Source: a virus. Taken from it: 12,987 bases of DNA. Positions within the stretch are counted from its first letter, which is position 1, and every line of letters starts with the position of its first letter. Under the pieces are notes generated by a model, which saw nothing but the letters and a program-made list of their open reading frames with translations, did not search any database and was not told where the DNA came from. A program made the translations under genes and the position numbers. This document shows, piece after piece, positions 4,696 through 10,374 of the stretch. The DNA lies in UHGV virus genome UHGV-0056732; one strand, 5' to 3'.

Positions 4696-7683
4696 ATGAG
4701 CTTAAGCGATCAGGTGGTAATGGCCACCAGCATAGAAACGCTGATCGAGCTGCTAAAGAACCTGCCCGATTATGGGCGGGTTTCGTATGTGGTGACAGCG
4801 AAGGGAGACGAGGTAAAAACAGCGTTTGATATCGTCGATGCCTCAGCTCTTTTGGTATCCAATACTCTGGATGGGAAAATTAATCCAGACTATCCCCAGG
4901 AACTTCAGCCGCGCGACCGGACCCGCGCATCCAGCCTTCTTCAGGTCAACCAGATATCCAAGGATTTGCGTCCTGCCCAGCTTACCGATTCCGGTTTATC
5001 CAGCCATGGCGCGCCAATAATTGGTGAGGACAATGCCGTTGAGTCAGGTAATGGGCGGACCATGGGGATCATTAAAGCCTATCAGGACGGTAATGCGGAT
5101 CGGTATCGGGAGTACCTGATTGAACATGCGACCGAATTCGGCATACGGCCTGAAAAGGTTGAATCAATGACGGCTCCGGTACTGGTGCGCCGCCGGTTAA
5201 CGACGGTTGACCGTGTTCAGTTTGCCAAGGACTCAAATATTTCTGATCTCCAGGAAATGGCAGCCAGTGAAAAGGCTTTTGTTGATGCCGACAGCATAAC
5301 ACCGGCGATGATGGCGCTTTTTAACCCGTCAGAAAGCGGAGATCTGCTTAGCCGCAGTAATGACGCGTTTATTCGCGGATTTATGACGCAAGTTGGTGCC
5401 ACACAGGCGGCTGGCCTTGTAACTGAAGATGGGCGACCAACACGGCAACTTGTTGACCGTATACAAAACGCGATCTTTGCCAAGGCATATAAGGATGCGC
5501 GCCTGGTAAGGATGGTTGCAGAAGAACCTGATCCGGATATGCGTAATGTTCTGACGGCGCTTAATGCGGCAGCCAATGATTTTGTCCAGATGCAGGCTTT
5601 ATCAGGAGAAGCGCACAAGCAGGCTGTGACAACTATTGTTGATGGCATTGAGACAGCGGATAGCCTCGATAAAAAGGCGCTGGCGGCATTGAAAGATGCG
5701 GTAGACCTGGTAAGGCAATCGAAGGAGTCAGGCCAGCATATTACCGATGTTATTGCTCAGGGGGATATGTTCAGCGAAACGGCCCCGGAAGTGAAAGCAC
5801 TCGCGTTGTTCATCGTCGCGAATAACCGTAGCGCGAAGCGTATGGCCACCGCCTTTAAGTTGATGGCTCAACGTATCAATGATGAGTTACAGCACCAGGG
5901 CCAGGCGCTGGGGGATATGTTTGGCGGCGGCGATGTGTCGTTACAGGATATCCTTCGCCAGGTGTCTCAGGAACTGGAAAACGAAGGCATGCAAGGGATA
6001 TCCGGCGGTCTTTTCGAGTCCGTTTCCGGCGGTAGTTACAACGGTGTTGCTCCGTATACCAGTTTGCTATTACATCGGGCATCCGGCATCAAAGACATTA
6101 TTCATCTGATCAGGCTGCTTTCCCGCACAGATCCCCAGGATGAACAGCTTGTACAAGTGCTTGCGCATTTTGTTCGAATGCCTGTTGCCGACGTGAAAAA
6201 ATGGTGCCGATTATTCGGTATCAGCAATTCGTTACTTCGCGGCTTGTTAAATCACGCATCCTCCCTTGGGCGCGATGGCTTTGACGAGATAGCGCAGGCG
6301 ATAAAAAACGGAGATATGCCACCAGCTATTGACTGGTTTTCCATTCGCCCAACCAGGGTGAAAGCATTCCTTAGCGCGGCGCATTCGGCATCACCATTGG
6401 CAGAAATGGTTCAGAGGTTATCGCTCATATTCACAGACCATACCGCGTTGGGTGATCTGACTCTGGACGAGATGAAGGAAGCCTCCATTCAGTGGGCCGA
6501 TCAACAAAATGAGGTTAACTCAGACTTCTTGCCAGCATTCAGGAAGGCCGTTAGTAAAGCGGATGATGCCCGTGGAATTCTGAAGGCATTTAAGGCATTG
6601 CAAAGTCGTGTTAATAAACATGTCGGTGATATCGATGGGGTAACGGCGGAAGGCAGGGATATCCTCAAAGAGCACGGCATAACGCCAGAGTTTATTGATG
6701 AGATCAGGACGGATATGCAGCGTGAGGTCGTATCGTCCCTGCAAATCGTAGCCAGAGCGTTGGCGGATGCTAATCCGAAGAGTGCGGCCATTGTTAACCG
6801 GGTTATTGGTGATATTGAAGCATCGGAGGGCATGGGGGCGCTGAAACTCTTCCTTTCGCGAGCGTTTAATCCTAACGGCAATATTCTCCCTGGCATTATT
6901 GGTGAGGCTAAAAAGTATGTCAGTGAAGAAGAACTTGAGCAGCTTGACCAACTACTTAAGCGATTCTCATATAACCCGCAGACACGCTGGCAAATGAATC
7001 AGCGAAGTATGGGTTCGGTCCACGAGAAAGTGTTATCTGCCATGAACAGTGCGATCGCAAACTCATCCGTATCTGAAGAAAAAGCTCTTGAGTGGGCCGA
7101 CTCTTTTATCACAGAAGAAGTGGAAGAAGCCCGCGCTGGACAGAATGGTGGGATAGACCTGCGCAAGGAACTTGCTGATATTTATCGCCTGACCGGCGGG
7201 AAAATATCGACCTTATCAAAGGTAGTTCACCACCAGGGAAGGGCATATGCAAATCTAAATGGTGTTGTTGCTGTCAATTTGAACGATAAAAATGCAAGTG
7301 CACTGTGGCACGAGCTGGGTCATCATCTTGAGTACAGTAACCCTGGTTTGTTAGAGAAAGCCCGGTCATTCCTGAAGGCCAATGTTGAAGGGGATAAGCC
7401 ATCATTCGTCAATATCGGTGGGCGTGGCAAGCCTGAATGGTGCTTCAGATCTCGATTGAGTAATATTTATATGGCGAAGGTATACCCGCCAGCCTCAGTA
7501 AGTAATTCCGGGAAAATTCGGCAGAAATCACCGACTATTTCCAAAACGTCAGCAACGGAAGTATTCTCTATGGCTCTTCAGTTGTATCATGACAAAGAGG
7601 CCGCTGCCGCATCACTGATGAATGGTGACGGATTGCTGGAACTGTTATTAGGTGTGGCAAAGGAGCTAAATAATGCAGATTAA
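4696..7683 (+). CDS. ddrB: DdrB-like large protein, 995 aa, with an N-terminal ParB/Srx-like motif region and a C-terminal HExxH zinc-metallopeptidase-like motif
   Basis: ATG at 4696; residues about 60-130 carry a ParB-N-like pattern (NPDYPQELQPRDR ... APIIGEDNAVESGNGRTMGI); residues 872-876 are HELGH (nt 7309-7323) followed by H877 and E887; size matches the roughly 108-kDa P1 DdrB as recalled. Confidence 0.65.
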   Translation: MSLSDQVVMATSIETLIELLKNLPDYGRVSYVVTAKGDEVKTAFDIVDASALLVSNTLDGKINPDYPQELQPRDRTRASSLLQVNQISKDLRPAQLTDSGLSSHGAPIIGEDNAVESGNGRTMGIIKAYQDGNADRYREYLIEHATEFGIRPEKVESMTAPVLVRRRLTTVDRVQFAKDSNISDLQEMAASEKAFVDADSITPAMMALFNPSESGDLLSRSNDAFIRGFMTQVGATQAAGLVTEDGRPTRQLVDRIQNAIFAKAYKDARLVRMVAEEPDPDMRNVLTALNAAANDFVQMQALSGEAHKQAVTTIVDGIETADSLDKKALAALKDAVDLVRQSKESGQHITDVIAQGDMFSETAPEVKALALFIVANNRSAKRMATAFKLMAQRINDELQHQGQALGDMFGGGDVSLQDILRQVSQELENEGMQGISGGLFESVSGGSYNGVAPYTSLLLHRASGIKDIIHLIRLLSRTDPQDEQLVQVLAHFVRMPVADVKKWCRLFGISNSLLRGLLNHASSLGRDGFDEIAQAIKNGDMPPAIDWFSIRPTRVKAFLSAAHSASPLAEMVQRLSLIFTDHTALGDLTLDEMKEASIQWADQQNEVNSDFLPAFRKAVSKADDARGILKAFKALQSRVNKHVGDIDGVTAEGRDILKEHGITPEFIDEIRTDMQREVVSSLQIVARALADANPKSAAIVNRVIGDIEASEGMGALKLFLSRAFNPNGNILPGIIGEAKKYVSEEELEQLDQLLKRFSYNPQTRWQMNQRSMGSVHEKVLSAMNSAIANSSVSEEKALEWADSFITEEVEEARAGQNGGIDLRKELADIYRLTGGKISTLSKVVHHQGRAYANLNGVVAVNLNDKNASALWHELGHHLEYSNPGLLEKARSFLKANVEGDKPSFVNIGGRGKPEWCFRSRLSNIYMAKVYPPASVSNSGKIRQKSPTISKTSATEVFSMALQLYHDKEAAAASLMNGDGLLELLLGVAKELNNAD

Positions 7684-7993: not shown

Positions 7994-8123
7994 CAGGAAT
8001 TGGCATAGAATTGATTGTTCAAATTTCATCCATCACATAGACGACTTCATGTTATTTGCCTGATAATTATGGCCTTAATAACCCATGTATATCTTTTGGG
8101 TTATATTCTTATCTTTAACAAGG

Positions 8124-8167
8124 TTATAAGAGCGACAATGATAAATTTATCACTATCGCTCTTATAA
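8124..8167. repeat. 44-bp near-perfect palindrome between convergent genes; possible terminator and/or protein-binding site
   Basis: TTATAAGAGCGACAAT-GATAAATTTATC-ACTATCGCTCTTATAA: 16-bp arms (14/16 complementary) around a perfect 12-bp palindromic core; followed by T-rich CTCTTTGTT; lies between the stop of the 106-aa ORF (7993) and the stop of the minus-strand 95-aa ORF (8197). Confidence 0.5.
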
Positions 8168-8196
8168 CTCTTTGTTAGCTATAGCTTTAAACAAAT

Positions 8197-8484
8197 TTAG
8201 TTTTGAGGCAATGCAACAAAAGTCAGCTCTTGATCTTTGATTAATGCTTTTGTTTGTTTGGATGTAATTCCCACTTTAGTTTTTACATCATTGTGGAGCT
8301 TCTTATACGCTTTTATTTCATCTGCTGTATATCGGAAGCCATTTGCACTGTTACTGGACAGTTGAAGTGCGATTACGTCATCACTGACACCCGCATCGCT
8401 TAGCTTAGCTATGCGGGTAATAGTGTGGCCTGCGCGAGTGTTTGGGGTGGATATTTTGTCTAAGAAATTGTTCAGTTTTTCCAT
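8197..8484 (-). CDS. Hypothetical small protein, 95 aa, possibly HTH DNA-binding, in an AT-rich island
   Basis: ATG at 8484 with SD AGAGG 9 nt upstream; segment HTITRIAKLSDAGVSDDVIALQL resembles a helix-turn-helix; visibly AT-rich flanks; own upstream region separated from the 263-aa gene by a terminator. Confidence 0.55.
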   Translation of the reverse strand: MEKLNNFLDKISTPNTRAGHTITRIAKLSDAGVSDDVIALQLSSNSANGFRYTADEIKAYKKLHNDVKTKVGITSKQTKALIKDQELTFVALPQN

Positions 8485-8706
8485 TGTTTACAACCTCTTA
8501 CTTGAGTTTATTGCCAGTAGAATTGCTACTATTCTTTTGCCTCAACGAATCACAATGTACTGGAATAAGAAACTATGAGCAATACTTACGCTTTGCGAAT
8601 ACAGAAGATGAATAATCAACTTATTACTAAAATGTTAATAATATTATTCTGTTACATAGTGTTCGCTATAACAATCGGGAGTTGAATGCTAATTCAATAA
8701 ATAAAG

Positions 8707-8732
8707 ACCCCGCCAATTGGCGGGTTCTTTTT
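8707..8732 (-). terminator. Rho-independent terminator just downstream of the 263-aa gene; also usable on the plus strand
   Basis: GC stem CCCGCC(8709-8714)/GGCGGG(8719-8724) with 4-nt loop AATT; T-run TTCTTTTT (8725-8732) on plus, GTCTTTATT on minus. Confidence 0.6.
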
Positions 8733-9519
8733 AATCACTTTCCACTTCTCCCGTGGTGTTTTCTTGCAGTTCTGTTAATGCAGCACGACATAGGTTCCGG
8801 GCATTGGCTATAGCCACACTTTTGACTTCATCCGTCATCGTGCAGGTAATGTACTGATCGAGTTCTTCATCGCGGATGATGCTTTTGCCAATCAGAAACT
8901 GTATTTGCCAGAGCAGATCGGCATCCATAATCAGAATTTCTGCCGGGCCTTCAGGGCCAGCCGGGAAGGAAACATAAGACTGTTTGCCCAGGCCGACAAC
9001 TCGACAACTTGCTTCAAGAATTGCGCGCTTGAGGTCTGACTTTATAACGGAAACAGGTTGATTTTCACCAGTGATTACGCCGTTGACATGGAAAGGCATG
9101 TAGCTTGAAATTCGCTCTACTTTCCATACGCCAGCAAGCGATCCTTCATGCAGCACAATGGGGGTAACCGCGAGTTTCATCTCACCATATAACTGCTGGC
9201 AGATAGCTGGATTGCTGAATACATCCAAAGGTTCACACTCAAACAGCGGCGCAATCTGCATGAGGTCCATCATGGTCATCCCTGGGGTACGAGCAGTAAT
9301 GAATCTGCGCATACCAGTATCCATTGCGCTCCAGATTGCTACACCATGCTTTTTGCTCACTTCTTCAGTAAAGCCAAGGTGGCACATGATGGTTTTTTCG
9401 ATAGCCAGATCAGAGATAGAAACCTTTTCGCCTGGCACTCCATCATTATTGACGGTCACTTCGACACTCTGGCCATTACGCAGGCGGTATTGAATTGTTT
9501 TAGTATTTTGTGCTGTCAT
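8731..9519 (-). CDS. Hypothetical protein, 262 aa, unknown function, directly downstream of ssb
   Basis: ATG at 9519 (MTAQNTK...) with SD GAGGAAA 7 nt upstream; the longer ORF to 9639 has no RBS; no terminator seen between ssb and this gene; terminator follows at 8707-8732. No family recognised; hhhhDxD-like ILIMDAD at residues 195-201 is weak, non-diagnostic evidence. Confidence 0.65.
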   Translation of the reverse strand: MTAQNTKTIQYRLRNGQSVEVTVNNDGVPGEKVSISDLAIEKTIMCHLGFTEEVSKKHGVAIWSAMDTGMRRFITARTPGMTMMDLMQIAPLFECEPLDVFSNPAICQQLYGEMKLAVTPIVLHEGSLAGVWKVERISSYMPFHVNGVITGENQPVSVIKSDLKRAILEASCRVVGLGKQSYVSFPAGPEGPAEILIMDADLLWQIQFLIGKSIIRDEELDQYITCTMTDEVKSVAIANARNLCRAALTELQENTTGEVESD

Positions 9520-9716
9520 AGTCTTTCCTCTGCTTAAAACCTGATGTATTGCGCCTTCAGGTGGGTCAGGAATGTTTTCCCACCAGCGAAAGCAATATCT
9601 CGGGGTGTTCTTTTCGTGAAAAGCGCGTGCCATTGCCAACTTTGGCGTTTTTTAGCGAGTTCGTGCTTTTGTTGGCGTTTGGACCACCGCTTTTCTTTCA
9701 GTCGTTTTTTACACAT

Positions 9717-10205
9717 TCAAAACGGAATATCGTCGTCAAAGTCCATTGGAGGTTCGTTATTGGCGTTGCTCTGAGGTTTACCGCCACCGCTGTATTGCTG
9801 GTGGTTTTGAGGTTGGTTTGATTGCCCCCAGCCATTTGAGGACTGTGAATCGTCACGGCGAGCGCCGATCATTTGCATGGTGCCGCCCTGGCTGACGATA
9901 ATTTCCGTCGTGTAACGTTCTACACCGGCGTCATCTGTCCACTTACGGGTTTTAAGTTTCCCTTCGATGTAGACCTGAGAACCTTTTCGTAAATACTCAC
10001 TCGCAATTTCAGCAAGTTTTCCGAACAAAACGACTTTATGCCATTCTGTTTGCTCTTTCTGTTGGCCCGTTTGCTTGTCGCGCCATGATTCATTCGTTGC
10101 GATGCTGAGTCTTCCGACCGCGACGCCATTTGGTATATACCTGATCTCCGGGTCTTGCCCCAGGGTACCAATCAGGATGACTTTGTTTACACCGCGTTGT
10201 GCCAC
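9717..10205 (-). CDS. ssb: Single-stranded DNA-binding protein (SSB), about 162 aa
   Basis: Canonical SSB OB-fold sequence ([20 protein letters not shown] ... [37 protein letters not shown]), Gly/Gln-rich tail and C-terminal [11 protein letters not shown]. Start taken as GTG at 10205 (MAQRGVNKV) by alignment to E. coli SSB; the ORF-track start at 10226 is a TTG. Confidence 0.9.
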
Positions 10206-10224
10206 TTTTCTTACCCAATAAAAC

Positions 10225-10241
10225 AAATTAATTAGAGCAAT
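10225..10241 (-). promoter_or_regulatory. Near-consensus P1 C1-repressor operator in the ssb/lyz divergent control region
   Basis: Minus strand reads ATTGCTCTAATTAATTT, 16 of 17 matches to the recalled P1 C1 operator consensus ATTGCTCTAATAAATTT; lies 20-36 bp upstream of the ssb GTG start. Confidence 0.55.
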
Positions 10242-10268
10242 AATGTATATCTTTGAAACGTAGCTAAC

Positions 10269-10287
10269 AAGTGATTTGCATTATCCT
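10269..10287 (+). promoter_or_regulatory. Candidate P1-type late promoter for lyz
   Basis: AAGTGATTT (10269-10277) - GCAT - TATCCT (10282-10287); same architecture and spacing as the lydA-upstream element. Confidence 0.4.
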
Positions 10288-10374
10288 GTGCCTTCTAAAG
10301 GGATCGAGTCAGTCGGTATTGGCTGTGAATGGGTGTTTGTCCTGGAGCGTAAAAAATTCGCTTATGAGGTCTTT

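Follow-up and report, generated by a model that had tools for sequence, protein, structure and literature searches.

The 262-codon gene directly behind ssb in the viral genome UHGV-0056732, analysed here as a stretch of 12,987 nucleotides (the window), can be identified from its sequence as the ortholog of isaA of the P1-like phage-plasmids, and it is a real gene under purifying selection. P1 is one of the classical models among phages, and P1-like phage-plasmids disseminate genes for resistance and virulence in the Enterobacteriaceae. In P1 the gene already bears the name isaA ("IS1 insertion-associated gene A"), which since 2004 has been a positional name only. The slot that it occupies has been described as well, isaA-IS1-isaB being variable region 2 (RD-2) of P1-like elements in two comparative papers (PMC6906374, PMC9603915). 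What the window holds here is an unexceptional gene that was catalogued before, in a hotspot known from earlier work. The present analysis adds a likely ancestral location in the cre operon and, moreover, corrected gene limits (262 instead of 320 amino acids), evidence of selection, early transcription of the P1 ortholog at levels like those of ssb, a defined family and the repeated occurrence of isaA next to a Tad2-like anti-Thoeris gene, which together make it a reasonable and cheap candidate for counter-defence screens.

A megablast search with positions 8500-10300 gave 96.6% identity with P1, over a match spanning the isaA stop codon to the end of ssb. The coding sequence under this match in the P1 record is isaA (product "IsaA, unknown protein function"), after which IS1 (insA/insB), isaB, hxr and ddrB follow. 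The window protein is 94.3% identical to P1 IsaA (AAQ13991.1; tblastn) and matches the profile of PHROG 2326, a family of unknown function, with an E-value of 1.5e-147 (residues 4-262 against profile positions 2-261 of 264). The DNA identity under a coding sequence annotated as isaA, combined with the PHROG 2326 match, shows that this gene is isaA. The original prediction, in which no family was recognised for the 262-amino-acid protein, was therefore wrong on this point; the gene is the same IS1-flanking gene that it named for P1, in the correct order isaA-IS1-isaB. An identical protein (100%) is encoded by the E. coli plasmid CP027590. The backbone in the window is of the P1 type (lyz, ssb, isaA, hxr, ddrB), with isaA directly 3' of ssb and with darA/ddrA/ddrB genes flanking the locus. 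Compared with P1, the window has the same position of isaA 3' of ssb, the same leader and the same C1 operator, at 94% protein and 96.6% DNA identity, whereas IS1 and isaB are missing and a 95-aa open reading frame (ORF) is present instead, and the window protein is two residues shorter in a low-confidence loop.

For the comparison of loci, 93 were fetched, including 62 of the P1 type and 25 of the D6 type. Over 25 distinct P1-type alleles, the ratio of nonsynonymous to synonymous substitution rates (dN/dS) of isaA amounts to 0.14, next to 0.11 for ssb. Homologues can be followed down to 17% identity, and the frame is intact in hundreds of plasmids. Because of this low dN/dS, the distant homologues and the transcription of the P1 ortholog (see below), isaA is to be regarded as a gene under purifying selection and not as a chance ORF.

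Its limits differ from those annotated in P1, where isaA is given 320 amino acids and a GTG start 29 nt past ssb. In the window, the frame of this longer form contains an in-frame TAA at 9654-9652, so that a 320-aa product is impossible here, and other alleles carry additional stops in the same frame upstream of the ATG. The upstream part of the 320-aa frame has a dN/dS of about 3. Moreover, the homologues of Ro157c2YLVW and D6 have their start at the corresponding codon, with a different gene in front of it, and the homology of the ribosome-binding site at the isaA start reaches as far as D6. The stops in the upstream frame, the PHROG profile match at residues 4-262 and the starts of the homologues together indicate that the 262-aa form is the real gene and that the P1 annotation is over-extended by 58 codons (9520-9693 in the window; 4730-4963 in the fetched locus L001).

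The features of the ssb-isaA unit, all on the minus strand, are listed in Table 1 together with the adjoining variable segment. The gene layout that had been predicted (a 262-aa ORF on the ssb strand with its own Shine-Dalgarno sequence, preceded by a 197-bp gap without terminator and immediately followed by one) was confirmed in all its parts, and the C1 operator announced upstream of ssb is indeed present, as a 17-bp element that appears to overlap the promoter and is identical to Ossb/Op21 of P1. In a consensus scan of the minus strand of the gap (9520-9716), no terminator-like and no sigma-70-like site was found, the same sigma-70 scan not having listed the P2ssb promoter (10242-10270) either. 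Likewise, the leader contains no P1 late promoter with two or fewer mismatches from the -22 box, the sole exact match in the scanned region being LPlyz. The terminator hairpin behind isaA begins 6 nt past the stop codon and consists of six pairs, all GC; it is palindromic and hence forms a hairpin on the plus strand too.

Because the operator equals Op21, the leader lacks terminator and promoter matches and a terminator follows isaA, co-transcription of isaA with ssb from the promoter under C1 control explains the data most economically and is well supported, albeit not proven. The 197-nt leader with its Shine-Dalgarno sequence and ATG recurs in Ro157c2YLVW and SJ46-type elements, where it stands in front of a 225-aa gene, the stop of which lies 6 nt before the isaA start, a layout that points to a single ssb-X-isaA transcription unit. 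In RNA-seq of P1vir, the log fold changes at 10/30 min in the wild type were 7.53/11.66 for ssb and 7.37/11.92 for isaA (PMC8201110, supplementary table), and in a dksA mutant 6.03/10.35 for ssb and 6.22/10.97 for isaA (PMC8201110). At 10 min, structural and late genes had values of about 3-5 and the early genes, repL and ban among them, of about 7 (PMC8201110). Over these four conditions P1 isaA differs from ssb by up to about 0.6 log2 units. Since its values lie near those of ssb and of the early genes at 10 min, P1 isaA is expressed, can be counted among the early genes and runs parallel to ssb. It weighs against the co-transcription reading that RNA-seq is no transcript mapping, so that an unrecognised internal promoter might contribute as well. 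The proposal that both genes are released together from the repressor finds support in the operator, the leader scan, the terminator and the P1vir RNA-seq. In a genome-wide CRISPR interference screen, P1 isaA was non-essential, with an efficiency of plating of 0.86 (PMC10695390), and the gene is dispensable in P1 for lytic growth on laboratory E. coli.

Table 1. Features of the probable ssb-isaA transcription unit and the adjoining variable segment (window positions)
Feature	Position	Strand	Details
Promoter P2ssb (former Pr21)	-35 TTGTTA 10270-10265; -10 TACATT 10247-10242	-	position mapped from the P1 annotation; stretch identical to P1; abuts the operator
C1 operator Ossb (Op21)	10241-10225	-	ATTGCTCTAATTAATTT; 20 nt upstream of the ssb GTG; letter-for-letter the annotated P1 operator
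ssb	9717-10205	-	162 aa; GTG start; C-terminal DFDDDIPF; NCBIfam SSB E 1.3e-80; matches P1 ssb; dN/dS 0.11
Leader (ssb-isaA gap)	9520-9716	-	197 nt, A-rich; no terminator-like or sigma-70-like match
60-codon basic ORF (ORF60)	9534-9716	-	within the leader; begins directly after the ssb TGA
Shine-Dalgarno GAGG	9530-9527	-	7 nt before the isaA ATG at 9519
isaA	8731-9519	-	262 aa; PHROG 2326; probable promoter-distal gene of the ssb operon
Intrinsic terminator	8700-8730	-	hairpin CCCGCCAATTGGCGGG, stem CCCGCC/GGCGGG at 8724-8709, followed by TCTTTATTT (T-run)
RD-2 variable segment	7994-8699		between the isaA terminator and hxr; 95-aa ORF and 46-bp palindrome; IS1 and isaB in P1

The leader belongs to the isaA module and not to ssb, the leader ORF being present in 336 plasmids of PLSDB, which is the number with a P1-type isaA. 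Its RNA has no significant structure (fold z-score -1.58) and no Rfam match. The last ~25 nt, consisting of a TAA, GCAGAGGAAAGACT and the ATG and including the GAGG, are homologous to the junction between the dut stop and the Tad2-like start in D6-type elements. The idea that the whole leader is a dUTPase remnant was rejected, since only the last ~25-40 nt match this D6 junction and ORF60 is unlike dUTPases.

ORF60 itself, which may be a leader or a small gene and had been noted as starting right at the ssb stop, exists as stated. It is open in 61 of the 62 P1-type loci and in 24 of 25 distinct variants, with 13, 4 and 12 variable sites at codon positions 1, 2 and 3, respectively, and a dN/dS of 0.62; if ~30 substitutions fell at random, the frame would stay free of a stop with a probability of about 0.17. 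It is annotated in no plasmid record, has no homologues beyond this leader and gave no significant family match. The junction of the ssb stop and the ORF60 start (window 9714-9722 and the equivalent site in 22 loci, e.g. L012, L013) occurs in two forms, TGA-ATG and TAG-AGTTT-ATG. The ORF60 start is retained despite the changed phase relative to ssb, and the frame stays open in the form with TAG and five extra nucleotides.

The gene found in relatives between the leader and isaA encodes a Tad2-like domain (PF11195, E 1.6e-22; ModTad2, Tad2 and AcrIIA7 in PDB with E down to 6e-20), which in P1-type elements is fused to an N-terminal region of ~135 aa without family match. This gene lies directly upstream of isaA in about 24 of the 62 P1-type loci (~40%), as in Ro157c2YLVW (L002, 5021-5698), and in all 25 D6-type loci, as in D6 (L003, 2594-3034), where the order is invariably cre> orf117> orf116> dut> Tad2-like> isaA> (25/25). 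A DefenseFinder survey reported Tad2 in 93% of D6 and 56% of P1 elements. From the window the Tad2-like gene is absent, with 9 nt (ACAGCACAA) in the place where Ro157c2YLVW has 687 nt. Given the homology of the leader end to the dut-stop/Tad2-like-start junction, isaA in the window is predicted to be translated from the initiation region that elsewhere serves the Tad2-like gene, whereby loss of the Tad2-like gene is most likely the direction of change. Tad2/DUF2829 anti-Thoeris sponges (PF11195) and AcrIIA7 are represented as the immediate operon partner of isaA in many relatives, whereas IsaA is three times larger than such sponges and has no sequence relation to them. A relationship between IsaA and its Tad2-like neighbour was likewise considered and rejected (hhalign probability 0.4%; no PF11195 match in 33 members).

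The IsaA family is small and confined to P1/D6-type phage-plasmids. An exhaustive profile search (E <= 0.001) found 40 representatives among 1.84 billion, originating from E. coli, Salmonella, Raoultella, Pantoea, Yersinia ruckeri, Xenorhabdus and metagenomes, and a scan of species-representative genomes yielded two loci only. All ten of the non-P1 contexts examined show the same arrangement, in which pac-like genes, c1 (reversed), cre and one to four small ORFs (PHROG 1968, winged-helix proteins or dUTPase) are followed by IsaA, with Ref, UmuDC, toxin-antitoxin pairs or other genes downstream. This constant position makes the cre operon the likely ancestral home of IsaA, an old gene of the P1 supergroup, the linkage to ssb being specific to P1 proper. 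The view of the gene as ssb-specific cargo is accordingly not borne out, as in all the non-P1 lineages examined it sits in a cre operon without ssb. D6 orf113 and the cre-operon homologues from Pantoea, Yersinia, Xenorhabdus, Raoultella and metagenomes resemble the window protein over their full length (17-48% identity), in acidity and in their position at the end of an operon, but they lie 3' of cre with dUTPase, winged-helix or Tad2-like neighbours and not behind ssb, and some of the cre-operon homologues carry long acidic or proline-rich tails. In the cre operons of distant members of the P1 supergroup (L006, L009, L094, L098, L100, L102), IsaA was always found a few genes past a Cre-like recombinase and a small PHROG 1968 protein, often with Ref (a RecA-dependent nuclease) next. 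P1 keeps cre and ref at the cre locus, and its isaA is now at the ssb locus.

At the protein level, an alignment of 33 sequences contains only four invariant residues (L128, W132, G176, D221), next to a set of near-invariant ones (Y11, G49, G69, P120, G126, A166, L220, Y223, A240) and a recurring PELDxY motif. As judged from this alignment, the conservation pattern does not resemble that of an active site, and no catalytic residues are conserved. All 33 members are acidic, with an isoelectric point of 4.4-5.1 and a net charge of -7 to -27. AlphaFold2, run with the 33-sequence alignment, predicted two alpha/beta domains and a C-terminal helix (230-261) that carries the variable acidic tail, with a mean predicted local distance difference test (pLDDT) score of 87.9 and a predicted template modelling (pTM) score of 0.84; this model superseded a first one built from seven close sequences (pLDDT 59.7).

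Searches with profiles and structures, which had been suggested as a check, gave no confident match to a housekeeping family. No Pfam, NCBIfam or PADLOC match was obtained for IsaA, and a Pfam scan of the 33 members gave nothing consistent. A sequence-profile search of solved structures yielded noise only (E >= 0.15), and the AlphaFold2 model had no confident fold match. PDB 1r7l, an uncharacterised Bacillus cereus phage protein, and the Hjc and tRNA-splicing-endonuclease folds came up with low scores, lacking Foldseek support and a shared catalytic motif. The D...(D/E)xK residues of a PD-(D/E)xK catalytic site are not conserved, E135 being replaced by A or D in members of the family. On the basis of the model, one of the domains may be a degenerate endonuclease-like fold devoid of the catalytic motif.

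The prediction had also likened the pair of ssb and its partner to the anti-SOS and anti-restriction genes of plasmid leading regions. The ssb-psiB-ardA clusters of these regions indeed have in common with our locus that, on a mobile element entering the cell, an accessory gene with early expression comes next after ssb. IsaA, however, is unlike PsiB, ArdA and ArdB/KlcA (no Pfam or NCBIfam match), the locus is under phage repressor control, and 455 of 474 isaA carrier plasmids are non-mobilizable. Homology to the leading-region genes has therefore to be dismissed, while the anti-defence theme as such retains circumstantial support from the Tad2-like neighbour.

With regard to function, the reading that we tentatively prefer, at somewhat less than even confidence, is that IsaA inhibits or modulates, without being an enzyme, a host protein of defence or DNA processing. 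Upon infection or induction, once C1 no longer represses the promoter, IsaA would be produced along with SSB and would act by binding, not by catalysis. Its target would be a host factor, such as a defence system or nuclease, by which phage DNA is attacked or processed as it enters or replicates, and in this way IsaA would complement the Tad2-like sponge and the nearby Dar/Ddr anti-restriction genes. An inhibitor is suggested by the recurrent pairing with the Tad2-like gene, the Dar/Ddr neighbourhood and the accessory hotspot in P1-type elements, and binding rather than catalysis by the presence of only four invariant residues, the uniform acidity and the lack of Pfam, NCBIfam and PADLOC matches. 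The anti-defence idea is a lead, not a result, and the evidence for it (Tad2-like adjacency, acidity and early expression) is circumstantial. Several points speak against it: the tie to the Tad2-like gene consists of adjacency alone; the most distant relatives lack a Tad2-like gene, and neighbours such as dUTPase, winged-helix proteins, Ref, RdgC and UmuDC fit DNA metabolism equally; a deep synteny with the cre operon is atypical of a fast-turnover counter-defence gene; and a net charge of -10 is unremarkable among bacterial proteins. A more far-reaching version, which we consider doubtful, would have IsaA found a new family of non-enzymatic counter-defence proteins or host-nuclease inhibitors, with an orphan two-domain fold and specific to P1/D6-type elements. 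The protein would be synthesised at the very start of infection, within minutes, along with SSB (in many relatives also with the Tad2-like sponge), and the ancestral seat of its gene would be the cre "establishment" operon, where it would protect the incoming DNA.

Alternatively, IsaA might be an accessory factor that helps the element to handle its own DNA, be it in replication, recombination, repair or circularisation, as a partner of SSB, RecA, Ref or Cre. This explanation, the main rival although rather unlikely, draws on ssb as the neighbour in P1 types and on dUTPase, Ref (RecA_dep_nuc), RdgC and UmuDC elsewhere, on the position of IsaA, outside P1 always shortly downstream of cre, on early expression alongside replication genes and on the weak nuclease-fold matches. 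Shared ancestry rather than function can, however, explain phage gene order; uniform acidity argues against direct DNA binding, no PD-(D/E)xK motif is conserved, and isaA is non-essential in P1 and absent from P7-type elements that replicate similarly. That IsaA is a degenerate PD-(D/E)xK restriction-endonuclease-like enzyme which still cuts nucleic acid is very improbable: acidic and lysine residues are not conserved at the motif positions, E135 is an alanine in several members, D221 is the sole invariant charged residue and Foldseek returned no matches. A role confined to the plasmid-prophage state (establishment, maintenance or lysogenic conversion), with no lytic or counter-defence function, would suit the restriction of the family to elements with a C1 repressor and a Cre-like recombinase (contigs of ~85-100 kb), the dispensability of isaA for lytic growth and the presence elsewhere in the hotspot of a conversion gene, the nmpC/ompD porin. 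Yet the promoter is C1-repressed in P1-type elements, so that isaA should be off in lysogens, and the gene already shows strong induction 10 min into lytic infection, which leaves this role with a small probability. Finally, non-essentiality and absence from about a third of P1-type plasmids might be taken as signs of decaying cargo without present function, an explanation that is hardly credible as it is contradicted by the dN/dS of 0.14, the intact frames, the conservation down to 17% identity and the high transcription.

The interval between ssb and ddrB, described beforehand as a known variable spot, includes the documented RD-2 (ssb to hxr), and comparison across P1-type plasmids shows alternative fillings. 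In PLSDB, P1-type ssb occurs in 500 plasmids and P1-type isaA in 336, about a third of the P1-type plasmids being without isaA. P7 and JL22 cease to be homologous to the window precisely at the stop codon of ssb, and both have in this slot a gene for an outer-membrane porin, nmpC/ompD, on the opposite strand (P7, L096, 3152-4267; JL22, L097, 3155-4267). Because leader and isaA are equal in number (336 each) among the 500 ssb carriers and because P7 and JL22 carry the porin gene, the leader-isaA module counts as one of the alternative occupants of the hotspot between ssb and hxr. The order in the P1-type loci can be summarised as lyz< ssb> [Tad2-like]> isaA> [nothing / 95-aa ORF / isaB / IS1 / 364-aa ORF] <hxr.

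Sequence conservation ends exactly at the isaA stop codon (window 8731-8700 compared with other loci). GC hairpins like that of the window, with altered loop bases, are found 3' of isaA in ~30 other loci; P1 and ~20 other loci have a different sequence right after the isaA stop, the P1 hairpin differing and the lineage with the 364-aa ORF having no hairpin. In the window, the slot of P1's IS1 and isaB holds the 95-aa ORF (8197-8484, minus strand), which occurs among few elements (Ro157c2YLVW, CP027590), is given as a shorter version of 69 aa in RefSeq and has no Pfam, NCBIfam or PADLOC match. Between this ORF and hxr lies the 46-bp palindrome (8123-8168), composed of two abutting 23-nt arms with 91% complementarity, which gave spurious miRNA-type Rfam matches on both strands and may serve as a terminator for both directions or, at the edge of the hotspot, as a site of recombination. 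One P1-type lineage (L018, 5782-6876, and ~20 other IMG/VR loci) contains the 364-aa ORF, without Pfam or PADLOC match, on the same strand as isaA and overlapping its stop by 8 nt, so that isaA is not the last gene in that lineage. In the P1 records MH422554 and MH445380, a feature named "terminase large subunit" lies under the isaA match and possibly represents this 364-aa ORF.

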